Of a stretch of DNA of 64,000 bases, positions 3,741 through 56,356 are shown piece after piece (the first letter of the stretch is position 1; every line of letters starts with the position of its first letter). The notes under the pieces were generated by a model. The model ran no database searches, was not told the origin of the DNA, and saw nothing but the letters and a program-made list of their open reading frames with translations. The translations under genes were made by a program, and so were the position numbers. Origin of the DNA: Gemmatimonadota bacterium (GTDB taxonomy: Bacteria > Gemmatimonadota > Gemmatimonadetes > Longimicrobiales > Longimicrobiaceae); assembly GCA_028287185.1 (NCBI GenBank), contig JAQBQD010000155.1, positions 33,609 through 97,608 of the forward strand, in the 5' to 3' direction.

Positions 3741-5798
<2,058 letters not shown>

Positions 5799-6472
5799 GG
5801 GTGCGGCTCCTTTCAGAAGCGGCGGGCACGGCGCGGCCCGCGGACGCCCGCGTGGGCGCCCGGTGAGCGGACGAGTGGCGATGGATGGTGGCGGCGGCTT
5901 CGAATGGACGAGGGGCGTGCTGCGGGCGCTCCGGCAACGGCTCCGCCGGCGCGGCGCGCCGTCCCCCGGGACCGGAGGGGCGCGCCCGGAGCAGGAGAAG
6001 ATCCCCGTCCGCGGGCTGGTGCACGCTGCTGCATGTGCTTTCTGGGGGCTGGGTTCCCCGATCGGCGGGCGGCGGCTACATCGGTAGCGGCCCGCCTTTA
6101 CCTCTATCCCCACACCGCGGCGCGAAGTTCCGCGCCTGCGGAAGCGTCCGCGCGCGGAGGACTTCCGGCGCCGGGATCTCGTCCAACCCCGCTGCATAGA
6201 GCTTGCCGGGCCGCGCAGCCCAGGCGGGGCCTGCACGGGCGACGTTCCACCGAGGCTCCGCGGACACGGATGTTTGGCAGTCCGTGCCGCATCCGGCACT
6301 CCGTGCGGGGTGCGTGGGTATCCAGCGTCCGGCCGTTGACGGTGGATGGGTTCGCTCGCTACCCTCCATCCCCGTCCGTCCATCGAACGTCCGTCGTCGG
6401 CGGATCGGGACGTGCGTCGTCCTTCCGCGCGCCGTCGACGGAATCTACCGAACGATCCCGAGCCTCGTGCCG

Positions 6473-8032
6473 ATGACCCGCATCCACCTCTCCCGCCGCC
6501 TCTGCTTCCTGCCCCTGCTCGCCTCGGCGCTCTCGCTCGCCGGCTGCGCGCACCCCCGCGCCGGGGAAGCGGCCGCTGGCGACGGCCCGCGGCTGCCCGC
6601 GCTCATGCAGCAGGTGGGCACGCCAGACGAGATCGGGCGCTGGGCGGTGGGGCGCTGCGCCGGCGCGGGCGGGCGGCAGATGGCGTGCTACGACGCGGTG
6701 CTGAACGCGGTGCTCGGCCCCCGCGGCGTGCGGCCCACCATGGAGACGCTGGCGGCCATGACGGCGCTGGACCCGGCGGTGGCGCGCGACGGGCACGTGT
6801 ACGCCCACGGAATCGGCATCGCGGCCTACAGGTCCGCGGCGGAGATGAACCGCACCTTCATGGAGTGCACGCCGCTGCACCAGTCAGGGTGCTACCACGG
6901 CGTGATCCAGGCCTACTTCGCGGACATGCAGGCGCACGGCGGGGTGACGGAGGCCTCCACGCGCGCCGCCTGCCACGAGATGGCGAACGACGCATGGCTG
7001 CTCTTCCAGTGCGCGCACGGCGTGGGGCACGGGCTCACGGCGCTGTACGGCCACGACCTGCCGCGCGCGCTGCAGGGCTGCGACCTGCTGGCCACGGAGT
7101 ACGAGCGCAACGCGTGCTGGGGCGGGGCTTTCATGGAGAACGTGGTGAGCGTCGCATCGCCGCACCACCACGACATCACCGCCGCGCTGGACCACGTCGC
7201 GGGGTCCGGCTCCGCGTCCCCCGCGGAGCCCTCCGTCTCCGGCGGGCAGGCGGAGACGGCGGGGATGGAGCACGGGGAGCACGCCGGCCACGCGGAGCAG
7301 GCATCCGCCGCCACGTCGTCCGCCGAGCACGCGGAGCACTCCGAGCACGCGGGCATGGCGGGCATGGCGGGCATGGCGGGGATGGAATCCGGCGAGCACG
7401 CGGGGCACCAGGGGATGGTTGGGACGGGTGGATCGACCGGGTCGGCCGAGCATGCGGGCATGGCAGGGATGGACCCCGGAGCGCACGAGATGGCGGGGAT
7501 GGACCACGCGGGGAACGGGAGCCCTTGGAAGGCGGTCGATCCGTCGGACCCGCTGTATCCCTGCACCGCGGTGGGAGCGCGCTACCAGGGCGCGTGCTAC
7601 AGCATGCAGACCTCGGTGATGCTGCACCTGAACGGCGGCGACGTGGCCGCCGCGGCGCGCGGGTGCGACGGCGCGCCCCTGCGGATGCGGAACGCCTGCT
7701 ACGCCAGCCTGGGACGCGACGTGAACTCCATCTCCGGCGGCAGCCGGCGCGAGGCGGCGCGCCTGTGCGGCCTGGGCAGCGCCGAGCACCGCCCGTGGTG
7801 CCACCTGGGCGTGGTGAAGAACATCATCGACGTCTCTTCCCGCGCGGACGACGGGCTGCCGTACTGCGCCTCGCTCCCCGACTCCCGCGACAAGTCGCGC
7901 TGCTACCGCGGCGTGGGCGAGGAGCTGCGTTACACCCCTGGCGACCTGTCCCAGCGCGAAGCGACCTGCCGGAAGGCGGAGCCGGGGTACGAGGCCGTCT
8001 GCCGCGAGGGGGCCGCGCTCGGGGCGAGATAG
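6473..8032 (+). CDS. Lipoprotein with about 9 Cys-containing repeats (C-x-HG-V/I-G) and a His/Met/Gly/Glu-rich insert ([13 protein letters not shown]); candidate periplasmic metal (copper)-binding protein
   Basis: ATG at 6473 ([25 protein letters not shown] = signal peptide + lipobox); the upstream part of the 609-aa ORF is Arg-rich and non-coding-like; 9-nt DNA repeat ggcatggcg x3 at about 7353-7383. Confidence 0.6.
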
Positions 8033-15825: not shown

Positions 15826-16740
15826 GTGCCGCATGTCCCTTCCGCTTTCCCGCCGCTCCCGCGCCGTGCTCGCGCTTCCCCTGCTGGCCCTGGCCGCCGC
15901 CTGCGGCCGTCAGACTCCGGCGGCGGCGCAAAGCCCGAGGACGTGGACCAGAAGGCCTCCGGCAGCGCCACCGAGCAGGAGGTCGCCGCCTTCAAGGCCC
16001 CCGCCGACAGCGCGCTCACCGACGCCCAGGTGAAGGCGTACCTCCAGGTGGCGCTCCTGCAGTTCGACCTGGTGCGCCGCGAGGCGCCGGCGTGGCACCA
16101 GAAGGTGGCCGAGATGAACGATCGCGCCAAGTCGGGCGGCACGCTGGCCCAGTTCCGCAACGCGGTGGAGGGCGTGGGCGCGCTGGGGCAGATGGGCGAC
16201 CTGATCGGCGGAAGCTACGTGCGCGCCTCGCGCGCGCTGCACCAGAACCCCGCCGAGATGGAGTGGGTGCGCGACCGGATGAACGAGGTGGGCGGCTACC
16301 TGATGGCCAAGCCCATGCTGGCCGCCCAGGTGCAGGCCGCCGAGCAGATGCGCGCGCAGGCCAGCCAGATGAGCGGCATGGGCCTGACGGCCGACCAGAT
16401 CGCCGAGATGAAGAAGAACGCCGACGACATGGCGGCCAACGCGCGCGGCGAGAACCAGCCCAAGCACGTGCTGGCGAACGCCGAGCTGCTGCACCGCGTG
16501 CGCCCCGGCGTCCCCGAGGCCCAGTGGACGCAGGTGGGCCTCTTCGGCGCCGCATCGGGCCTGGCCGTCTTCGCCGCCCTGGGCGACAGCACCGACACCG
16601 AGTCGCACCGGAAGCTGGACGAGTTCCGCACGCTCTTCCAGGCCACCCTGGACGGCAAGCCCGCCCCCGGAATGGAAGACCCCAGGCCCGCCGCCCCCGC
16701 CGCCGCTCCGGCCCCGGCCGCACCGGCCCCCACGACCTGA
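15826..16740 (+). CDS. Hypothetical periplasmic protein (Ala/Pro-rich C-terminus). A probable frameshift or assembly indel separates a lipoprotein signal peptide (ATG 15833, frame +2) from the mature part (frame +1)
   Basis: Frame +2 from ATG 15833 gives the canonical MSLPLSRRSRAVLALPLLALAAACGRQT signal/lipobox and then stops at 16033; frame +1 carries the long ORF (AKPEDVDQKASGSATEQEVAAFK...); junction at GGC GGC GGC repeat 15917-15928. Confidence 0.5.
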   Translation: MPHVPSAFPPLPRRARASPAGPGRRLRPSDSGGGAKPEDVDQKASGSATEQEVAAFKAPADSALTDAQVKAYLQVALLQFDLVRREAPAWHQKVAEMNDRAKSGGTLAQFRNAVEGVGALGQMGDLIGGSYVRASRALHQNPAEMEWVRDRMNEVGGYLMAKPMLAAQVQAAEQMRAQASQMSGMGLTADQIAEMKKNADDMAANARGENQPKHVLANAELLHRVRPGVPEAQWTQVGLFGAASGLAVFAALGDSTDTESHRKLDEFRTLFQATLDGKPAPGMEDPRPAAPAAAPAPAAPAPTT

Positions 16741-16990
16741 CACCCTCCGTCTCCGCGCCGGCTGCCATCAACGGCCGGCGGGAGGCTCGGCAGATCAGAA
16801 AGACGAGCCGCCCCGGCCAGCATCGGCCCGGGCGGCTCATCTCGTCCCGTGCATTCCCTCCTCTGTCCACCGCCCGCTGCCCGCACCGCCAGCCGTTCCC
16901 GCGCGGAGCGAGCCCACGAAGGTGGGCGGATCGGTCGTTGCAGCCCCGGGATTCATCCCGAGGCCGTCGCGAGGTCCGCCCGCCCACCTC

Positions 16991-17054
16991 CACGGACTCC
17001 ACGGACTCCACGGACTCCACGGACTCCACCGACTCGACCCGACTCGACCGACTC
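16991..17054. repeat. 9-bp tandem repeat (CACGGACTC x4 perfect, then about 3 degenerate copies)
   Basis: cacggactc cacggactc cacggactc cacggactc caccgactc gacccgactc gaccgactc read directly; intergenic between convergent gene ends 16740 (+) and 17218 (-). Confidence 0.75.
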
Positions 17055-17217
17055 CGCCGATTGCTTTGGATACCGTCCCGAGCATCGACATCTCCGCCGA
17101 TCCCACCATCATCTCACGCCCACCCTCGGCCAACCTCGCAGGCCGATCGCCAGACCACCCCTCATCGATCCACGGATCTCTGCACGTCGCTCGGCGCCGT
17201 CCGGACCGCCGGCCGCG

Positions 17218-18666
17218 CTACTTCTCGCACTCCGCGAACATCACCATGCCGTCGCCGGCGTAGCGGATGGCGGAGGCGGGCGCCTCGAACCGGGACGCGC
17301 CGAACAGGCGGTTGGCATCCTCCTCGCCGCGGTGCGCCAGGCGCCACTCCAGCACGTGGTCCATGAACGCCTTGCTGGGATTGCCGGTGTGGAAGCTGCC
17401 CAGCACCACGCGCCCGCCGGGCTTCAGCAGGCCGTGCACCAGGTCCAGCAGCTTCACGAACATCCCGTCGTCGAAGTAGTCCGCAAGACCCAGGGCGTAG
17501 ATCACGTCCTGGGGCTCCACGTCCAGCGTCGCGCGGCCCAGGGCCAGGTACACGGGGTTGATGCCCACCATGTCCACGCGGTCGCGCAGCCCCGCCTTCT
17601 CGCGGCGCTCGGACGCGAACGCCAGCGCCTGCGGGTCGAAGTCCACCAGCGTCGCGTGGATGCGCTGCGGGTCGCCGACGGCCGCGAAGGCATCGAACAG
17701 CTCCTGCGCCGGCCCCGCCGCCAGCGCCGTCACCCGCAGCGGCTCGGCCGACGTGCTCTCGGACGCCAGCGCGGCGATGCGCTCCGCCATGGACGTGCGC
17801 CGCGCCCGCAGGGCGGCGCCGAAGGGCGAGCGCAGGAAGCAGCGGTCCAGCGCGGGCCCGATGCGGCTGGTGCCGCGCGGCACGTCCTGGTAGAACATCT
17901 CCAGCGTCATGAAGTCGCCGGGGTAGCCGCGCGGCTTGCCGTAGAGGCGCTCGGCGCTGCGCGTGAGCAGGATGTACGGCAGGAGCTGCTTCTGCACGTG
18001 AAGCCCGATCTTCTCGCGCACCTCCTCGGGCTCGCTGCCGGCGTCGCCCGCGGCCTCCTCCAGCAGCGGGTAGAAGTCGTTGAAGCGCCCGGTGAGCGCG
18101 GCCTGCATCTCCTCGGGCACGACCTCGTGGTTGCGCAGCGCGGCGTCGTTCGCGGCGTGGATCAGCCCTTCCAGCTCCACGACCGCCGCCGCCACGCGCC
18201 GGTGCGCCGGGCTCTCCTCGCCCCCCGCCGGCGCGTCCCCCTGCGCCTGCACCGAAAGCCGGCTGTTGGTGCGCCGCAGCTTCTGCGACAGCGACTTGGC
18301 CATGCCGCGGTACAGCCGCGCCGCAAAGTGCGGGTCCTTCTGGAACTTGGCCTGCAGCTCGGTGAACGGCAGGCTCAGCACGGTGCTGGTCTCCTGCGCC
18401 ACCACGTTCTCGGTGGGCGTGCGGTCTTCCAGCAGCGACATGTCGCCCACCACGCCGCCCGGCCCGATCACCGCCAGCCGCTCGCTTGCCATGGCCGGCG
18501 AGAAGACGGCGAGGATGCCCTTGAGCACCACGTACAGCGCCGTCACGGGCTGGCCGGCGCGGATCACCGCATCGCCCTTCATCACCTGCTCCTCGAGCGC
18601 GGTGTTCAGGATCCAGTCGACGTCGGCGTCGCTCAGCTTCTCGAACAGCGCGGCGGCTCGGTTCAT
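17218..18666 (-). CDS. Cyclic-nucleotide-binding (CAP/cNMP) domain fused to a class I SAM-dependent methyltransferase
   Basis: ATG at 18664-18666 (MNRAAALFEKLSDADVDWILNTALEEQVMKGDAVIRAGQPVTALYVVLKGILAV = cNMP-binding beta-roll); C-terminal half has an MTase fold (VDMVGINPVYLALG, LLKPGGRVVLGSF). Confidence 0.75.
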   Translation of the reverse strand: MNRAAALFEKLSDADVDWILNTALEEQVMKGDAVIRAGQPVTALYVVLKGILAVFSPAMASERLAVIGPGGVVGDMSLLEDRTPTENVVAQETSTVLSLPFTELQAKFQKDPHFAARLYRGMAKSLSQKLRRTNSRLSVQAQGDAPAGGEESPAHRRVAAAVVELEGLIHAANDAALRNHEVVPEEMQAALTGRFNDFYPLLEEAAGDAGSEPEEVREKIGLHVQKQLLPYILLTRSAERLYGKPRGYPGDFMTLEMFYQDVPRGTSRIGPALDRCFLRSPFGAALRARRTSMAERIAALASESTSAEPLRVTALAAGPAQELFDAFAAVGDPQRIHATLVDFDPQALAFASERREKAGLRDRVDMVGINPVYLALGRATLDVEPQDVIYALGLADYFDDGMFVKLLDLVHGLLKPGGRVVLGSFHTGNPSKAFMDHVLEWRLAHRGEEDANRLFGASRFEAPASAIRYAGDGMVMFAECEK

Positions 18667-18926
18667 GGGCTCGGAGACGGTGGAGAGGGGGCGGATGGGG
18701 CGTTCGGCAGGCGCGGAGGCCTCGGCCGGCCTCCGTCGTAAGGTGCCGGGCGGGGGTGGGAGCCGCAAGGATGGCGGGGAGGTTGGCGAAGGCGCTTGAC
18801 GCGATCAATGTACACACTCGAAAGCAGTGGCAACGCGCTTCGCTTTCTCGCGGTAACTCTGCACGCGTCGAGATCTTAACGGGTGCGGGTTAGGCGCTAT
18901 CAAGCCAGTGGGCTGCATCCGATAGC

Positions 18927-18961
18927 TACAAAACGGGGGACACTCAGATTAGGTGCCCCCC
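18927..18961 (-). terminator. Candidate rho-independent terminator (minus strand), 3' of the Ntn-hydrolase gene
   Basis: Minus-strand reading: GGGGGGCAC-ctaatctga-GTGTCCCCC followed by GTTTTGT; 8-9 bp GC stem plus U-tract. Confidence 0.35.
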
Positions 18962-19091
18962 GCGAACTATGATTCTCGTCTAGCGCTTGTTTGACCGCGA
19001 GCTACCGGTGTCGTGCAGGACGTGGGATGGAGTGGGATTATTCTCAGCCCACCGCTCAATCCAACGTATCTCCGCTTGAGTCAGCCGAGGA

Positions 19092-19101
19092 GGGGGGGGG
19101 G
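19092..19101. repeat. Homopolymeric G10 tract
   Basis: gaggaGGGGGGGGGGtag read directly; intergenic, about 55 bp 3' of the Ntn-hydrolase stop. Confidence 0.8.
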
Positions 19102-19155
19102 TAGTCTGCGTTTTCGGCGATGTCAGACTGCCCGGGAGCGGGCTCGGTGTATTTT

Positions 19156-20082
19156 TCATTCTTGCCTCCAGTTTGGGGGAGGTGTGTCCAATCTCGGTGG
19201 GTCAACAGGGTTCAACTCCCCAGGGTAATAGTGTTTCCGACTGACCCACTTAAACCCTTGGTGTCTAGTGATTGCGGCAATGTCAATCGGCGGTCCGACA
19301 ACGGGCGCGCCCGGTTTGAACCGCAAATAACCCGCCGTGACATCCGCCAAGTACTTCACCAGATCGATCGCATCTTGGATGGGCATACCCGGGTGCGCAA
19401 GCTGTGTTTCCGAGACAAGAATCGCGTCGGCAGCCTCATGTGTGAGCCCAGCCTCGACTAAGCGATCGTGGGCCTCGGCAGACCACCCGTAAACTAGGCG
19501 GTACAGGGCTTCTGGCTGGGCCCAAAATCGCACAATACCTGTCTGGCCAGCAGGCACGATCTGCGTGGGACCCTCGCAGACGCCGCCTTCATGGACTTCA
19601 ATGGTCCAGACCTCGGGAAGGTACGCATTGGCGGAGAACCCGGCAAGAACAAATCCGAGGGACGGACGCTCTGGCGCCGGACCGATGGGTGGTTGGTCCG
19701 TGTCTCCATCCGACGTACCCGGAGCGTGTGATGGTTGACCAAAGTGACTTACGTACAATTGATCGTAAAAGAATGTTTTTACCAATCCCGCAACTTCTTC
19801 CATCGTATACGTGCGGCGATCAATTTCCCACCCGGGTACGTCTTCGTCTTCACCACTCAACAAATCCCGGAGGACGCGAGCCAGGCTCGCAATTGACGTC
19901 CCAGCCATGCTCCCAAGACCCCAAGTCATCAGTCCGATGGGGAGGCCCTTAACCAGGTTGATCGTCTTCTCCGCATTGGAGTAAATGTTGTGGTAGCGCT
20001 CTCCCGGAAGGACAATCGACGTCGCACTGTCGGTTCCCAGCACCACCCCGTCACCAACAACAAGTGAAATCGCGATTGTCAT
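19156..20082 (-). CDS. Ntn-hydrolase, proteasome beta-subunit / HslV-like protein (solitary)
   Basis: 308 aa, MTIAISLVVGDGVVLGTDSATSIV... has a Thr at position 2 (putative N-terminal nucleophile after Met removal) and a proteasome-beta-like GxxxD/T...K context; lower-GC codon usage than neighbours. Confidence 0.55.
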   Translation of the reverse strand: MTIAISLVVGDGVVLGTDSATSIVLPGERYHNIYSNAEKTINLVKGLPIGLMTWGLGSMAGTSIASLARVLRDLLSGEDEDVPGWEIDRRTYTMEEVAGLVKTFFYDQLYVSHFGQPSHAPGTSDGDTDQPPIGPAPERPSLGFVLAGFSANAYLPEVWTIEVHEGGVCEGPTQIVPAGQTGIVRFWAQPEALYRLVYGWSAEAHDRLVEAGLTHEAADAILVSETQLAHPGMPIQDAIDLVKYLADVTAGYLRFKPGAPVVGPPIDIAAITRHQGFKWVSRKHYYPGELNPVDPPRLDTPPPNWRQE

Positions 20083-20412
20083 GCGTCCTCATGGTTGGCG
20101 GTTACTAGAAATCGTATCCAAGATGCGGCAGCCTACAGACGATGCCCACACACCAACCGACAGCGGAAGGCACGACCAAGGCTGAACGGAGAGTAATCGA
20201 GCATGAATGCAACCGTGAGTCGCAATTACCGGGAGGCGCGCGTGGCTCCAGACTGGCCGGTCGCACTGGCGAGGGCCCCGTCGAGGCCACACGCTTGTCC
20301 GGCCACTTGTTGGAAGGCCCGGGAGTTTCGTAGAATTGCGCTCGCCGCCGCGGACCCCATCCGCGGACCGCACCGCGCAACCGGCAACCGAACCCATCCA
20401 CAGGAGGCAACC

Positions 20413-22461
20413 GTGCCCGAGCAGGCGCAGCAGTTCACCTTCCAGGCCGAGGTGCAGCGGCTCCTGGACCTGGTGATCCACTCGCTCTACACCGACAAGG
20501 AGATCTTCCTGCGCGAGCTGGTCTCCAACGCGTCCGACGCCATCGACCGATTGCAGTTCGAGGCGCTGACCAACCCGGAGCTGCTTCCGGAGGGCCACGA
20601 GCCGAAGATCCGCCTGGTTCCCGACAAGGAGCGGCGCACCCTCACCATCGAGGACGACGGGATCGGGATGACGCGCGACGAGGTGGTGCGGAACATCGGC
20701 ACCATCGCCCGCTCGGGCACGCGCGAGGCGCTGGAGCAGCTCAAGGAGAAGGCCGAGGGCGCGGGGCAGCTCATCGGCCAGTTCGGCGTGGGCTTCTACT
20801 CGTCGTTCATGGTGGCCGAGCGGGTGGAGCTGGTGACGAGGAAGGCGGGAACGGACGAGGCCGTGCGTTGGACCTCTTCCGGCGACGGCTCGTTCACGGT
20901 GGCGGAGGCCCAGCGCGACCGGCCGGGCACCACCATCACGCTGCACCTGAAGGCGGTGGACACGGAGAACGGGATCGAGGACTTCACCGACCGCTGGGTG
21001 CTGTCGCGCCTGGTTCGCCAGCACGCGGACTTCATCACCTATCCCATCGTCCTGCCGGCGGAGAAGGCGGACGAGGTGCCGGAGGGCGAGACGCCGGAGC
21101 CGGAGAAGCCCCTCAACTCCATGAAGCCCATCTGGGCCCGGCCCCCGGCCGAGGTGACGAAGGAGGAGTACGCCGACTTCTACCGCCAGATCGCGCACGA
21201 CTGGTCCGAGCCGCTGGAGACGATCCACACCCGCAGCGAGGGGCTGGTGGAGTTCCAGGCGGTGCTCTTCCTGCCATCGCGCGGGGGGACGGAGCTGTAC
21301 TATCCCGGCTTCAAGCCCAGCCTGCGGCTGTACGTCAAGCGGATGCTGGTGCGCGAGAACAGCGAGGAGCTGCTGCCGCGCTGGCTGCGCTGGGTGCGCG
21401 GCGCGGTGGACTCGCCCGACCTGCCGCTCAACGTGTCGCGCGAGATGCTGCAGAGCGACCGCCACGTGCGCCAGATCCGCCGCGCGCTCACCAGGAAGGT
21501 GCTGGACACCCTCAAACGGCTGCTGGAGAGCGAACGGCCGAAGTACGAGGCGTTCTGGCGCGAGCTGGGACGGGCCGTGAAGGAGGGGGTGGAGGGCGAC
21601 TTCGAGAACCGCGACGCCCTGGTGGACCTGCTGCTCTTCGGCTCGTCGCGCGAGGCCGAGGCGCTCACCACGCTGGCGGAGTACGTGGAGCGCATTCCCG
21701 AGGGCCAGGCCGACGTCTGGTACCTGACGGGCGCCAGCCGCGAGCAGATGGAGAGCTCGCCGGCGCTGGAGGCGTTCCGCGACCGCGGGTGGGAGGTGCT
21801 CTACCTGACCGACCCGGTGGACGAGCTGGTGGTGCAGTCCGTCACCGAGTTCCGGGGCAAGCGCCTGCGCTCGGCCGCCAAGGGCGCGGTGGAGCTGGAC
21901 GGCGCGGAGAAGAAGGAGGAGGGCCTGGCGCGGGAGAAGGAGTTCGAGCCCTTCCTGACCTCCCTCCAGAAGCGCCTGGACACCTGGGTGAAGGAGGTGC
22001 GCCTCTCCGGCCGCCTGACGCGCTCGCCCGCCGTGCTGGTGGTGGCCGAGCACGACTACTCGCCGCAGCTGGAGCGCCTGATGTCCGGCGGCCGCCGCGA
22101 CGCCATCCGCCAGCGCCGCATCCTGGAGCTGAACGCAGCGCACCCACTGGTGCAGGGCCTGCGCCGCCGCTGGGACGCCGGCGCCGAGGACCCGGTGGTG
22201 GGCGACTACGCCGAGCTGCTGCTGGGATGGTCGCTGCTCGCCGAAGGATCGGAGCCGCACGACCCCGTGCGCTTCACCCAGCTCGTCGCCGGCCTGATGG
22301 AGACGGCGCTGGATGCGGCGCCCGCGGCGGCTCCGCCGGCAGCGGAGGTCGCGTCCGAGCCGGCGGGCGCGACCGGTTCTTCGGCGGATGCCGCAGGCTC
22401 GGTCCGTTCCGGAGGCGCGGTGGAGTCGCCGGACCCGGAGGCCCCGAAGAAGGAGAATTGA
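20413..22461 (+). CDS. htpG: Molecular chaperone HtpG (Hsp90 family)
   Basis: GTG at 20413 preceded by aggagg RBS (caggaggcaaccGTG); VPEQAQQFTFQAEVQRLLDLVIHSLYTDKEIFLRELVSNASDA is the Hsp90 N-terminal signature; the 752-aa six-frame ORF extends upstream artefactually. Confidence 0.9.
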   Translation: MPEQAQQFTFQAEVQRLLDLVIHSLYTDKEIFLRELVSNASDAIDRLQFEALTNPELLPEGHEPKIRLVPDKERRTLTIEDDGIGMTRDEVVRNIGTIARSGTREALEQLKEKAEGAGQLIGQFGVGFYSSFMVAERVELVTRKAGTDEAVRWTSSGDGSFTVAEAQRDRPGTTITLHLKAVDTENGIEDFTDRWVLSRLVRQHADFITYPIVLPAEKADEVPEGETPEPEKPLNSMKPIWARPPAEVTKEEYADFYRQIAHDWSEPLETIHTRSEGLVEFQAVLFLPSRGGTELYYPGFKPSLRLYVKRMLVRENSEELLPRWLRWVRGAVDSPDLPLNVSREMLQSDRHVRQIRRALTRKVLDTLKRLLESERPKYEAFWRELGRAVKEGVEGDFENRDALVDLLLFGSSREAEALTTLAEYVERIPEGQADVWYLTGASREQMESSPALEAFRDRGWEVLYLTDPVDELVVQSVTEFRGKRLRSAAKGAVELDGAEKKEEGLAREKEFEPFLTSLQKRLDTWVKEVRLSGRLTRSPAVLVVAEHDYSPQLERLMSGGRRDAIRQRRILELNAAHPLVQGLRRRWDAGAEDPVVGDYAELLLGWSLLAEGSEPHDPVRFTQLVAGLMETALDAAPAAAPPAAEVASEPAGATGSSADAAGSVRSGGAVESPDPEAPKKEN

Positions 22462-33650: not shown

Positions 33651-34843
33651 GGCATCTCCCGGTTCGTTCGATCGATCCCGTCCTCCGCGCACGCGAAGCG
33701 CGGGATCCGGGTGTTCCCGGACGGCTGGTACCCCCGGCCCGCCGCCAGCCGCCCGAGATCCACCCGCATGGCCATCATCTCGGCGATGGCCGCCACGACG
33801 ATCGTGCGCGCGATGCCGGTTCCGGGACACGCGTGGCGCCCGTGGCCGAAGCCGGACGTGCGGCGGGCGGGACGGCGGAGGCGGAACACGTGCGGATCGG
33901 CGTTCGCGCCCGGATCGCGGTTCGCGGCGGCGAGCAGGACCAGCACGGCCTCGCCCGCGCGCATCGCCTGGCCCGCCACGACGCCGTCCTCCGCCACCCA
34001 CCGCCGCGTGTTCTGCACCGGCGGATCGTGGCGCAACACCTCATCGACGAAATCCCCCAGCAAACCGGGATCGCGCTCCACTTCGCCGCGCATCGGTGGA
34101 TTCTCCGCCAGCGCGACGATCGCGTTGCCCAGCAGTCCCGCCGTGGCATCGTGCGTCTGGATGAGCAGCCCGACGGCGTTCGCGGCCGCCGTCTCCGGCT
34201 CCAGGCACCCGGCGGCTCGGAGGCTTCGGTCCAGTGCGCCGATCGGGGCGGACCGGCGCACGCCGCCGCGGGAGAACAGCGCCGTCAGGTGCGTGGCGGC
34301 ATCCGACCCGACCGCGACGAGATCCGCAGCCGCGCCCGGCGCCATCCCCCGGACCAGCTCTCCGGTTCTCCGCGCGACGTGGGGCAGGCATGCGTCCGGC
34401 ACACCGAGCAACCCCGCGACCACGTGGACGGGCAGCCGGAAACCGAGCGGAATGCCTTCCGCGCCCCACCAGCCGCCTTCCCGCCAGAGCGCACGCGTCC
34501 GCCTCCGCGCCTTGCGGTCGACCGCTGTGGAATCCATCGCCGCCGTCGCGGTCAGGACGCCGGCCTTCAGGGTGGCGTGGGTGGCGCCATCCGTCATCCG
34601 AGCCAGGCGCCGAAACACCTCGCCGGCGGATGTGCCTGCGAGGGCGGGCGGTACGGGCTCACCCGGCGGACGCACGCGGCAGAGCGGGGAATCGAGCACG
34701 GCCTGCACAGCTTCCGCAGACGCCGCGACCCAGCAGCGCATCCCGGCGTTCCACGCGAGCGGCTGCGTCCGCGCCAGGCGCTCGTAGTAGGCGTACGGGT
34801 CCGGGTGCGTGACGGCGGCGATGGGATCGAGCGGTTCGGTCAT
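33647..34843 (-). CDS. Cytochrome P450 monooxygenase
   Basis: ATG at 34841-34843 (MTEPLDPIAAVTHPDPYAYYERLAR...); heme-binding loop FGHGRHACPG and ExxR (EVLRHD); 398 aa; forms the 3' part of the artefactual 2263-aa six-frame ORF. Confidence 0.85.
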   Translation of the reverse strand: MTEPLDPIAAVTHPDPYAYYERLARTQPLAWNAGMRCWVAASAEAVQAVLDSPLCRVRPPGEPVPPALAGTSAGEVFRRLARMTDGATHATLKAGVLTATAAMDSTAVDRKARRRTRALWREGGWWGAEGIPLGFRLPVHVVAGLLGVPDACLPHVARRTGELVRGMAPGAAADLVAVGSDAATHLTALFSRGGVRRSAPIGALDRSLRAAGCLEPETAAANAVGLLIQTHDATAGLLGNAIVALAENPPMRGEVERDPGLLGDFVDEVLRHDPPVQNTRRWVAEDGVVAGQAMRAGEAVLVLLAAANRDPGANADPHVFRLRRPARRTSGFGHGRHACPGTGIARTIVVAAIAEMMAMRVDLGRLAAGRGYQPSGNTRIPRFACAEDGIDRTNREMP

Positions 34844-35170
34844 TCGGCTTGCGACGCGTGCGGGAGGAGGACCATCGAGCCATGCAGGGGCTGATCGGCA
34901 CCACGAATATCCATCGACGGTCATCCAAAGCCCAGCCAAATCGTTTTGCTCCGGAGCAAACGATCGGGTCGGACGCGCATCTCGGTTTGTTCGCGATCCA
35001 TCGACCGATACGCCGTCAACACGTTGTCTCGATGATGGATAGCGTTCATCCGCGCCGCCGATCTTCGTGTTCGAGGCGGACTCACGGGTGACGGGAGGCG
35101 TGCTGGCGACGGCTTGCATCCGCGGGCGGCGCGCGGCGATCATGCTGGGGACGAATTTTCCCCGCACAGG

Positions 35171-35884
35171 ATGCGTTCGATGACGATGGAAGGACCCGAT
35201 CTCTCCAGCCTGGCGCGCACCATCGGCGAGCCCAGCCGCGCGCGGATGCTGACGCTGCTGATGCAGGGCCGCGCGCTGACGGCCAAGGAGCTGGCGTACG
35301 GCGTGGGGATCGACCCGGCGACGGGCACCGCGCACCTGCGCCGGCTGCACGCCGAAGGCCTGCTGACCATGGTGGCGCAGGGCCGGCACAAGTACTTCCG
35401 CCTGGCGGGCGCCGAGGTGGCCGCGCTGGTGGAGTCGATGATGGTGGCCAGCGCCGCCCACGCCGCCGCGCCCATGCGCGACGAACCCATCCGCCACGCG
35501 CGCTTCTGCTACGACCACCTGGCCGGCCGCCTGGGCACGGGCCTGCTGAACGCCTTCGTGGAGCGCGGAATCCTGGCGCGGGATGACGGGAGCTTCGCCG
35601 TTACGGCGGACGGGGAGGCGTGGTTCACCGCGTTCGGGGTGGACGTGGACGCGCTCCGCCGCGGCCGGCGTCGGTTCGCGGCCCCGTGCCTGGACTGGAG
35701 CGAGCGCACCGACCACCTGGCCGGCGCGCTCGGGGCCGCCATTGCGGAGCGGATGGTGGCGGCGGGGTGGATCGACCGCGTGCGCCGCTCGCGCGCGGTG
35801 ACGGTCACGGAACTCGGGCGCCACGAGCTGTCCCGGCAGCTCGGCCTCTCGCATACGTCGGAGCCGCGCGCCGCCGCCGGGTGA
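35171..35884 (+). CDS. ArsR/SmtB-family winged-helix transcriptional regulator with C-terminal extension
   Basis: HTH region ARMLTLLMQGRALTAKELAYGVGIDPATGTAHLRRLHAEGLL; divergent from the P450/ABM operon across a roughly 330-bp spacer; start ATG 35171 (alternatives 35180, 35186). Confidence 0.6.
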   Translation: MRSMTMEGPDLSSLARTIGEPSRARMLTLLMQGRALTAKELAYGVGIDPATGTAHLRRLHAEGLLTMVAQGRHKYFRLAGAEVAALVESMMVASAAHAAAPMRDEPIRHARFCYDHLAGRLGTGLLNAFVERGILARDDGSFAVTADGEAWFTAFGVDVDALRRGRRRFAAPCLDWSERTDHLAGALGAAIAERMVAAGWIDRVRRSRAVTVTELGRHELSRQLGLSHTSEPRAAAG

Positions 35885-54116: not shown

Positions 54117-54571
54117 CGTCACCGGAAGGATCTGTTGCGGCAGAATGTGGCAGAAACAGGCAGGCGCGCCGGCCGCGCTGGTCTCGCGGCAGGAATCGGC
54201 CTGCCGAGCAGCCGTGGGCCGAGCCAGGATATGCGATACAAAGCGCTTACGGATGATATTCGCGGAGCCCAAATCTCGCAAGCCGCCGCCATTTGCGTAG
54301 GGCCGCACCCGTCCGCGCCCACCATCCCAGATCACCAGCAGCCATCTCGTTGCTCCTGCGCCCCTTCCGTCTTTTCAGACGCCCGCAGGCGATCGAGTCT
54401 CTGGAACGCCGGCGAATTCTCCACGTCGCAAAGGGAGCGAACCATACATCAGAAATCGACTGGACCGGCTACAGGTGTTTCGATCCCCGGCATGTCTCCC
54501 GTGCTCGGAGCTCGAGGCCCCTCGTCGAAAGAAGTCCGGCCCTTCCGTCCCCGCTGACGGCGTGCGGAGCG

Positions 54572-55000: not shown

Positions 55001-55756
55001 CTATAGCCCGGTGGGATGATCGATGAACTCCCACGCGATGCCGAACTTCTCCTCCAGGTGGCGCGCCAGGGCCTTCACGCCCCACGTCTCGGTGGCGTAG
55101 TGGCCGCCCAGGAAGAGGTTGACGCCGCCCTCCTCCGCGTCGAAATAGTTGTGATGTGCACCTTCTCCTGTGATGAACGCGTCCAGCCCCGCCGCGGCGG
55201 CCGCGCCCACCATGCTGCCCGCGCCGCCGGTGATGATGCCCATCCGGCGCACGCGCTCGGGCCCACCCGGCACCAGCTTCACGCGCACGCCCAGCACCTC
55301 GTCCAGGCGCGCGCAGAGCGCCTCGCGGCGCAGGTCCAGCTCGCCCCACACCCCCAGCGGCCACCCCTTGTAGTCCGCGAACGTCCCCCGCGGCTCCATG
55401 CCCAGCGCGCGGGCGAGCACGGCATTGTTGCCCACCTCGGGGTGCACGTCCAGCGGCAGGTGCGCCGAGTAGACGGCCAGGTCCGCGTGGAACAGCGCGC
55501 GCAGCCGGCGATAGCGCCGTCCGGTGACGGGCTGGCTGCCGTCCCAGAACAGGCCGTGGTGCACCAGAAGCAGGTCTGCGCCGCTGGCGGCCGCGCGCTC
55601 CACCACCGCCTGGGCCGCGTCCACCGCCACCGCGATCCGGCGCACCTCGCCGCGGCCGGTGTCCAGCTGCAGGCCGTTGAGCGCGCCTGCGTAGTCCGGC
55701 ACCTCGCAGATGCGCAGGTAGTCGTCCAGGTACTCGGTCAGCTCGCTCGGGGTCAC
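55001..55756 (-). CDS. Nif3-family dinuclear-metal-centre protein (YqfO/YbgI-like)
   Basis: VTPSELTEYLDDYLRICEVPDYAGALNGLQLD...; start uncertain (GTG at 55754-55756 preferred; the ORF's ATG at 55873 would place a DnaA-box cluster inside an atypical N-terminal extension). Confidence 0.65.
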   Translation of the reverse strand: MTPSELTEYLDDYLRICEVPDYAGALNGLQLDTGRGEVRRIAVAVDAAQAVVERAAASGADLLLVHHGLFWDGSQPVTGRRYRRLRALFHADLAVYSAHLPLDVHPEVGNNAVLARALGMEPRGTFADYKGWPLGVWGELDLRREALCARLDEVLGVRVKLVPGGPERVRRMGIITGGAGSMVGAAAAAGLDAFITGEGAHHNYFDAEEGGVNLFLGGHYATETWGVKALARHLEEKFGIAWEFIDHPTGL

Positions 55757-55780
55757 GCGGGGCGCGGGGTTCCGGCCGGT

Positions 55781-55888
55781 TCCACAATTGTGGATAACGA
55801 CGGTGGATAAACCTGGGATGTTTCTGTGGAAAATCTGCAACCCAATGTGGGACGCAGGTTTAAGACTGCACACCGCGTTTGTGGAGAA
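55781..55888. promoter_or_regulatory. Cluster of DnaA-box-like 9-mers (candidate oriC element or DnaA-regulated region)
   Basis: TGTGGATAA (55789-55797, perfect DnaA box), GGTGGATAA (55802-55810), TGTGGAAAA (55825-55833), TGTGGAGAA (55880-55888), plus inverted TTCCACA (55781-55787); locally A/T-richer; about 3.5 kb from parAB-mnmG. Confidence 0.5.
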
Positions 55889-56356
55889 CTACGCGAAGCT
55901 TTGTTCAGGTTCGCCTGGCGGAAGGGCGTGGGGCAGCGGCTGCGGAGCGCCGTCCATCATCCGGATCTGGCCGTTGAACTGCGCCCCCTCCTCCAGCGAC
56001 AGGTGGTGGGGATGGGTGCGGATCTCGCCCTCGATGTCGCAGGTGGACTGCAGCGTCAGCCGCTCGGCCGTCAGCGTCCCGCGGATGCGCCCGCCGATCA
56101 CGATGGTTTCGGCCGTGACGTCGCCGACGATCTCGCCCTCCTTGCCGATGAACACCGATCGGCCCGCGCGCAGCGTGCCCTGGATGCGTCCCTCCACGCG
56201 GATCTCGCCCTCGGTGGTCACGTCGCCCACCACCACCATCCCGGGACCGATCAGCGAGATCGATCCCACCTCCGCATTGCGGATCGCCGAAGCCACCTTG
56301 TCTCGTGCCACGGACCCTCCCGGCCGGTCGTTCGTTTTCTTTCCGAAGATCGCCAT
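55889..56356 (-). CDS. Bactofilin (DUF583) cytoskeletal protein
   Basis: MAIFGKKTNDRP...; repeated beta-helix pattern IGPGMVVVGDVTTEGEIRVEGRIQGTLRAGRSVFIGKEGEIVGDVTAETIVIGGRIRGTL. Confidence 0.75.
   Translation of the reverse strand: MAIFGKKTNDRPGGSVARDKVASAIRNAEVGSISLIGPGMVVVGDVTTEGEIRVEGRIQGTLRAGRSVFIGKEGEIVGDVTAETIVIGGRIRGTLTAERLTLQSTCDIEGEIRTHPHHLSLEEGAQFNGQIRMMDGAPQPLPHALPPGEPEQSFA

Follow-up and report, generated by a model that had tools for sequence, protein, structure and literature searches.

A low-GC islet in a Gemmatimonadota genome pairs a proteasome-like hydrolase gene with a small overlapping partner gene

Introduction

Iterative searches reported by Fuchs, Alva & Lupas in 2021 yielded 22 new proteasome-like subfamilies (PMC8665760). 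Six of these, PMI-1 to PMI-6, take their name from "Proteasome homolog with Multiple Insertions", with representatives WP_115649681.1, WP_137109689.1, OGZ26396.1, HDY66466.1, WP_179179973.1, and WP_103790100.1. Their hallmarks are a Thr1/Asp17/Lys33 triad, the absence of a propeptide, and insertions after H1/H2 and between H3/H4, and those at the pore loop and between H3/H4 are expected to hinder a closed double-ring barrel (PMC8665760). The PMI groups have a broad, patchy spread through bacteria and Euryarchaeota, with phage copies in PMI-4; they have no AAA+ partner, and their function was left blank. ATP-independent roles of orphan homologs were discussed, and no genomic context or co-occurrence pattern was reported for any of the new homologs (PMC8665760). 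Here, we describe a relative of these proteins in a 64,000-nucleotide (nt) stretch of a Gemmatimonadota genome (contig JAQBQD010000155.1, positions 33,609 to 97,608; hereafter the window). A segment of the window with low G+C content (GC), the islet, encodes a 308-amino-acid (aa) hydrolase of the N-terminal nucleophile (Ntn) class (gene 1) together with a 59-aa protein (gene 2).

An earlier note on the window, written from the sequence alone, had described a low-GC islet with a solitary proteasome/HslV-like Ntn hydrolase, had suggested its horizontal acquisition, and had remarked that orphan enzymes of this type are poorly characterized. The last point accords with the uncharacterized state of the homologs (PMC8665760), and no later functional work on them was found in the literature searched. 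We propose that the two genes of the islet form a small module that moves horizontally and encodes an active hydrolase and a dedicated small ligand, a reading to which we assign a probability of roughly 0.6. Gene 1 is a new member of a kind known from computation but lacking an assigned function, most likely the PMI-type proteasome homologs, and its family very probably corresponds to one PMI group; none of the nine accessions of isolate copies coincides with a PMI representative.

Results

Gene 1 occupies positions 19156 to 20082 on the minus strand. The N-terminus of its product, MTIAISLVVGDGVVLGTDSATS, is as the earlier note had quoted it. Routine annotation gave little: scans against Pfam, NCBIfam, and PADLOC were without a match, Pfam at E<=10 returned just a spurious MerE match, and a PDB search with the 308-aa sequence alone gave hits at chance level only. 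RefSeq lists all nine isolate copies as "hypothetical protein". The family is nonetheless large, with 1,086 homologs in a word-indexed search, and an exhaustive profile search, with clustering at 50% identity, recovered 417 representatives at E<1e-30 and 2,957 at E<1e-10. The A1 profile matched yeast beta1 (E=0.004), placing T2 on Thr1 and D18 on Asp17.

Conservation across 253 full-length members was close to complete at the catalytic positions (T/S2 in 251, D18 in 253, K39 in 251, and G55 in 250) and at a set of family-specific residues (M233 and W279 in all 253, R195 in 251, R282 in 249, and K283 in 246). K39 is part of an E/N-K motif that occupies the D32-K33 position, and its assignment to Lys33 follows from position and conservation. 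The structural model of gene 1 is an alpha-beta-beta-alpha Ntn sandwich that can be superimposed on 20S subunits. Two glycines, G55 and G57 (the latter in 227 of 253), come after model strand 49-56, and either is a candidate for the Gly47 oxyanion-hole equivalent. Compared with a 20S beta subunit, the model gains a variable, low-confidence segment at residues 115-140, following H2 (94-114), and further helices, 202-210 and 215-223, between H3 and H4 and ahead of helix 235-249 (the labels H1-H4 were assigned to the model helices in this analysis). The gene 1 protein is thus a proteasome-type Ntn hydrolase with the Thr1/Asp17/Lys33 pattern, in keeping with the class that had been proposed for it, though it is nearer to 20S and Anbu than to HslV.

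Because 239 of the 253 members open directly with (M/V/L)(T/S), the family has no propeptide. Methionine aminopeptidase prefers small second residues, so the initiator Met would be removed from the gene 1 product. As a separate observation, the copy in Leifsonia virtsii (L077, 6001-7317) reads through to 438 aa, about 150 residues beyond its relatives, and may be a fusion or a missed stop.

Downstream of gene 1 lies gene 2 (18980..19159, minus strand), which encodes the 59-aa protein MKNTPSPLPGSLTSPKTQTTPPPPRLTQAEIRWIERWAENNPTPSHVLHDTGSSRSNKR. Its ATG overlaps the TGA of gene 1 as ATGA at 19156..19159 on the minus strand. The hydrolase gene is therefore not solitary, and the roughly 490 bp on its 3' side, which had been taken to be entirely non-coding, contain a conserved open reading frame (ORF). 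A G10 tract noted in that DNA does exist, at 19092..19101, but it reads as C10 on the coding minus strand and lies inside gene 2, where it forms the codons ACC CCC CCC CCT (T-P-P-P) of a PPPPRL motif. A candidate terminator reported at 19132-19147 fares less well: it is on the opposite strand and inside the small ORF, and terminator-like sites number 2 against 1.8 expected from shuffled sequence.

We then examined partner ORFs across 84 non-redundant homologous loci, using an iterative hidden Markov model search of about 6,460 small ORFs from six frames; ORFs overlapping the main gene were left out of the partner clustering. A same-strand ORF of 45-130 aa abuts the stop codon of gene 1 (start from -10 to +40 nt) in 80 of 83 loci (96%), compared with 33% and 31% in two controls. 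Among these 80 partner ORFs, 28 have the same 4-nt overlap (-3 offset) and 66 have an ATG start. The family of gene 2 itself accounts for 27 matches, all 27 directly downstream of the Ntn gene and none among some 6,300 remaining small ORFs. Ten actinobacterial loci make up a second family, whose motif is Y[RS]S[AG]P[QR]GAAV, and 10 of its 11 matches are in the partner position; smaller families were found in archaeal loci (YFYQP.S) and elsewhere. Motifs in Gemmatimonadota are YPxPSxxGG / PRGGSKP and PPxPxL[ST], the last being a box kept across the partner family of gene 2 in alignment.

Partners from the closely related loci L010 and L014 differ by 10 synonymous and 2 non-synonymous codon changes (2, 0, and 10 differences at codon positions one to three), a pattern which indicates purifying selection. 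On these sequence statistics, we regard the small ORF as a real gene. A single-sequence AlphaFold2 model of gene 2 contains one confident amphipathic helix (residues 28-40) between low-confidence segments, and the Pro-rich N-terminal part is probably disordered. In general, the partner is a fast-evolving protein of about 60 aa that combines a Pro-rich linear motif with a single amphipathic helix and is probably largely disordered. Since the families of different clades share no detectable homology, "one conserved partner" holds for position and size, and for sequence only within clades. At one locus, in a Gemmatimonas metagenome-assembled genome (L013, 4883-5071), the 3' end of the Ntn gene is much extended (377-aa P0045), and a partner-like ORF (motif YPAPSIRG...PPKLPRETV) lies over the extension in a different frame. 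The arrangement is due either to nesting of one gene in the other or to a frameshift or misassembly.

No other partner was identified. As the earlier note had stated for HslU and alpha subunits, the window contains no AAA+ unfoldase, alpha subunit, or paralog within about 10 kb of gene 1, and neither an unfoldase nor an alpha-subunit partner is conserved among the 84 loci. All-against-all clustering of the same loci gave no larger conserved neighbor, the biggest cluster (4 of 84) being generic ABC ATPases, and 92 immediate neighbors carry 81 different Pfam families.

Relatives of gene 1 are present in 277 of 185,579 species-representative genomes, which belong to Gemmatimonadota, Actinomycetota, Proteobacteria, Firmicutes, Chloroflexota, Acidobacteriota, Bacteroidota, Verrucomicrobiota, and several archaeal lineages. 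The gene is poorer in GC than its flanks in 96% of 81 loci (mean difference of 7.6 points), and the same is seen in 18 IMG/VR viral contigs, 16 of which also show the hydrolase gene followed by a small ORF. The closest homologs are 62-67% identical, come from the same phylum, and are themselves low in GC. The islet's composition is therefore a sign of long-standing membership in a mobile gene pool, not of one recent import from a distant donor. The horizontal acquisition that had been suggested for the islet stands in that form, as an accessory and mobile gene absent from the three closest relatives. Because the pair moves between genomes and occupies variable slots and prophages, its role would be accessory rather than housekeeping.

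Two cultured phages carry relatives, namely Porphyromonas phage BK068103.1 (L111, 25469-26905) and Providencia phage MW358929.1 (L112, 37186-38660). Their proteins of 414 and 431 aa form a longer sister subfamily, phrog_5990, which aligns with the window family over its full length (hhalign probability 98.9%) and has in common with it an MT...DSA...K N-terminus and a GGPxDxAxIxxxxGFxWxxRKHYF C-terminus. In both phages, a 55-58-aa ORF follows the hydrolase gene and a DNA methyltransferase gene lies just upstream; in the Providencia phage, the gene pair is directly upstream of the lysis cassette. Two Firmicute loci (L036, 824-1288; L089, 8014-8415) have a holin-like protein, judged by eye, about 1 kb from the module, which suggests a prophage context for these loci.

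Within the window, the islet stands out by composition. Sliding GC over 18790-20230 is 56.9%, against a window mean of 71.8%; this is about 5 standard deviations under the mean and is the lowest-GC 1.4-kb stretch anywhere in the window. The A/T-richer stretch of the earlier note is thereby confirmed. GC at third codon positions (GC3) is 0.60 in gene 1 and 0.64 in gene 2, compared with 0.94-0.97 in htpG, the cyclic nucleoside monophosphate (cNMP)-methyltransferase gene, and other neighbors. Far weaker dips (0.61-0.63 in 300-bp windows) occur at 1751-2200, 4601-5050, 34751-35200, 54201-54550, and 55701-56050.

The edges of the islet were defined against sister genomes. Orthologs of the cNMP-methyltransferase gene (~80% identity) are found on three long contigs of the closest relatives (L108, L109, and L110), and the Ntn gene is absent from all three (tblastn E>1), making it accessory rather than core at this locus. 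In a blastn comparison with L109, homology through htpG (88% identity) stops at about window position 20400, and homology to the cNMP-methyltransferase gene (81%) restarts at about 18774. This delimits a lineage-specific low-GC segment of ~1.6 kb at 18775..20399 (GC 0.57 against 0.72), which holds both genes of the module and their own non-coding flanks. In the sister contigs, the corresponding slot is the region upstream of the cNMP-methyltransferase gene, at locus positions of about 4200-6900. L109 has there 2742 bp of unrelated genes, encoding a 482-aa protein with no Pfam match and a glyoxalase. In L110 the cargo consists of YitT, a Fic-domain protein, and two ORFs of 75 and 132 aa, and in L108 of a methyltransferase and ORFs of 92 and 86 aa. 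As each relative carries different cargo and none has the Ntn gene, the slot is variable and the module lineage-specific, and the slot looks like a local hotspot of gene turnover. On the far side of htpG in L109 (301-1800), a 449-aa gene with no Pfam match lies in another low-GC patch (0.58-0.64 against 0.71).

Both flanking genes are core genes, and they are the two between which the islet had originally been placed. To the right is htpG (Hsp90; 20413..22461, plus strand; Pfam HSP90 E=3e-124; GC3 0.96), whose start agrees with that of the L109 ortholog; among the window and the three sister contigs, htpG is found at this locus only in the window and L109. To the left is the cNMP-methyltransferase gene (17218..18666, minus strand; Pfam cNMP_binding and Methyltransf_20; GC3 0.97). 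A functional tie between the module and htpG was considered and rejected, the adjacency being unique to this lineage.

The divergent intergenic region between gene 1 and htpG (20083..20412) is islet-specific save for the last 13 nt before the htpG start, and presumably contains the promoters of both genes. It has no sigma-70-like match and no sequence in common with the upstream regions of the closest homologous loci. Shortly before htpG begins, at 20348-20390, two short tandem repeats occur, a 13-nt unit (CCGCGGACCCCA, 2.4 copies) and a 7-nt unit (2.5 copies); lying at the right edge of the islet, they may belong to the regulatory sequence of htpG or represent a junction scar. On the other side, the DNA that separates gene 2 from the cNMP-methyltransferase gene (18667..18979) is a non-coding spacer, islet-specific at 18775-18979 and conserved with sister genomes at 18667-18774; it has no Rfam match and no terminator beyond chance.

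Around the islet as a whole, promoters, terminators, direct or inverted repeats, tRNA-like sequences, and Rfam elements were all at chance level; this includes the flanking direct repeats that the earlier note had thought worth seeking. As the repeat, tRNA-like, and Rfam searches gave nothing above chance, no attachment sites or cassette ends were identified, and the insertion is unmarked by repeats, an integrase, a tRNA, or shared non-coding ends. The non-coding sequence of the islet was unmatched in the closest homologous loci, of which only L010, L011, and L014 share flanks with each other. Outside the islet, the space separating a 304-aa ORF (15826-16740) from the 3' end of the cNMP-methyltransferase gene contains, at 16988-17055, a 9-nt tandem repeat (CTCCACGGA; 7.4 copies, 91% matches), which translates as STD or PRT repeats in spurious frames.

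Discussion

The data above describe a proteasome-type fold with conserved catalytic residues, arranged in an operon with a small gene and distributed as an accessory, mobile pair. We envisage that removal of the initiator Met would expose T2 as the Thr1 nucleophile, assisted by the Asp17 and Lys33 equivalents (D18 and K39) and the Gly-rich oxyanion segment (G55/G57), and that the protein would then be catalytically active. Translation of gene 2 would be coupled to that of gene 1 through the ATGA overlap. Its product is most likely a dedicated ligand of the hydrolase and would bind it either as an inhibitor or regulator in the substrate cleft or as a specific substrate. Since the pore-loop and H3/H4 insertions would hinder a closed double ring, the enzyme may be monomeric or form an open assembly, relying on a specific ligand instead of compartmentalization.

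Several points weigh against this proposal. On the side of the enzyme, Ser129, Asp166, and Ser169 of the proteasome have no obvious equivalents in gene 1, and model confidence is lowest at residues 253-257, near where Asp166 and Ser169 would be expected. On the side of the partner, the two largest families have no detectable homology, a link between these families 1 and 2 having been rejected at an hhalign probability of 0.2%, and at 39 of the 84 loci the small ORF belongs to no family. A physical interaction of the two proteins is a prediction from the gene layout. Finally, no catalogued defense model was matched (PADLOC, 0 families at E<=10), and defense or mobile-element genes are a minority of immediate neighbors.

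Going further, the pair could represent a previously unrecognized mobile two-component protease system of bacteria, archaea, and phages, in which the mini-protein acts as cognate inhibitor or sensor and the Thr1 hydrolase as effector, as in an immunity or conflict module; we offer this broader idea tentatively, and would sooner expect it to fail than to hold. Three specific functions can be ordered by falling probability. The first is a toxin-antitoxin-like or anti-phage (abortive infection) module, a specific version of our proposal rather than an alternative enzymology, in which the Thr1 protease would be toxic and the small disordered partner a labile inhibitor whose loss or sequestration, for example during phage infection, would free proteolysis. 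This is possible but doubtful. It suits the two-gene layout with its small, fast-evolving, and clade-specific partner, the low GC, the patchy cross-domain spread and variable location, and the occurrence of the gene in prophage contigs, often close to the contig end. The loci of the cultured phages, which follow a methyltransferase gene and in the case of Providencia directly precede the lysis genes, are also consistent with it, as are a Fic module in the same slot of a sister genome (L110) and the presence of MazF/PemK, Mokosh, HEC-01, PDC-S70, transposases, or RepSA among some neighbors. Set against these are the lack of a PADLOC match, the mostly ordinary genes in the neighborhood, and a partner with no recognizable DNA-binding domain.

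The second function is dedicated processing or ligation, whereby the hydrolase would recognize a short motif in its partner and cleave or transpeptidate it, so as to release or attach a peptide, comparable to connectase and MtrA or to a peptide-maturation protease. The clade-specific short linear motifs in the partners of actinobacteria, archaea, and Gemmatimonadota point this way, and connectase provides a precedent as a sequence-specific proteasome homolog (PMC7980362), yet we consider this function unlikely. Less probable again is that the small protein is an assembly factor, a chaperone resembling Ump1/POMP that would act in trans for the missing propeptide, help a ring or oligomer to form, and then be degraded, leaving a general ATP-independent protease for unfolded proteins. 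A hydrolase with no propeptide and a small, probably disordered partner would fit, ATP-independent roles of orphan homologs have been discussed (PMC8665760), and the htpG adjacency in the window would suit protein quality control. That adjacency, however, occurs in no other homologous locus, the module is missing from sister genomes, an accessory, low-GC, phage-borne spread would be unusual for a general quality-control protease, and the pore-loop and H3/H4 insertions are expected to hinder a barrel. Lastly, gene 1 could be a relic without activity or an ORF called in error within AT-rich junk DNA, with the small ORF there by chance. This would account for the atypical codon usage and the absence of Pfam or NCBIfam matches, but is hardly credible given more than 1,000 homologs in the word-indexed search, 2,957 cluster representatives at E<1e-10, invariant catalytic residues, a confident model, and small-ORF statistics and synonymous-dominated substitutions that point to coding.

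The small coupled partner, nearly universal in this family, seems not to have been reported so far and is the most useful lead from this work. Of the 22 families of proteasome relatives catalogued in 2021 with no function, partner, or context (PMC8665760), one is now almost always paired with a co-translated mini-protein, and the substrates of such orphan enzymes, as well as their control in the absence of an unfoldase, become a matter for a simple two-protein experiment. Were the two-component conflict system borne out, an "orphan" proteasome homolog would for the first time have a functional context, and a protease-inhibitor conflict module would extend proteasome-type chemistry to mobile-element biology. 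If the hydrolase is instead a specific processing enzyme, it would be a potential tool, as connectase became.

Among known systems, HslV (ClpQ) resembles gene 1 in being bacterial, starting with Met-Thr, and having no alpha subunit, but it has an HslU operon or co-occurrence and a compact subunit of ~175 aa, neither of which applies to gene 1. The 20S beta subunit (PF00227) is not matched by gene 1 even at E<=10, and there is here no alpha subunit, propeptide, Pup/ARC, or Mpa context. Anbu (ancestral beta subunit; PDB 5LOY/5LOX) is the best fold match, at 17% identity; gene 1 differs in having no Pfam Proteasome match and ~80-100 extra inserted residues. Anbu is encoded in a conserved operon with larger neighbor genes, and these are not present beside gene 1. 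Connectase (DUF2121; PDB 6ZW0) has no H1/H2 and a two-helix lid between S3 and S4, which gene 1 does not fit; like gene 1, however, it is a proteasome homolog without an unfoldase, and by acting on one specific partner protein via a short motif, it offers a functional analogy for a dedicated small partner. The PMI groups come closest. PMI-4 has a long pore-loop insertion and is better fitted by the 414-431-aa phrog_5990 proteins than by the 270-310-aa window family. Matched by description, the window family fits the PMI proteins in its core, insertion sites, absence of a propeptide, and spread, and it differs from them by a translationally coupled small partner gene in 96% of loci.

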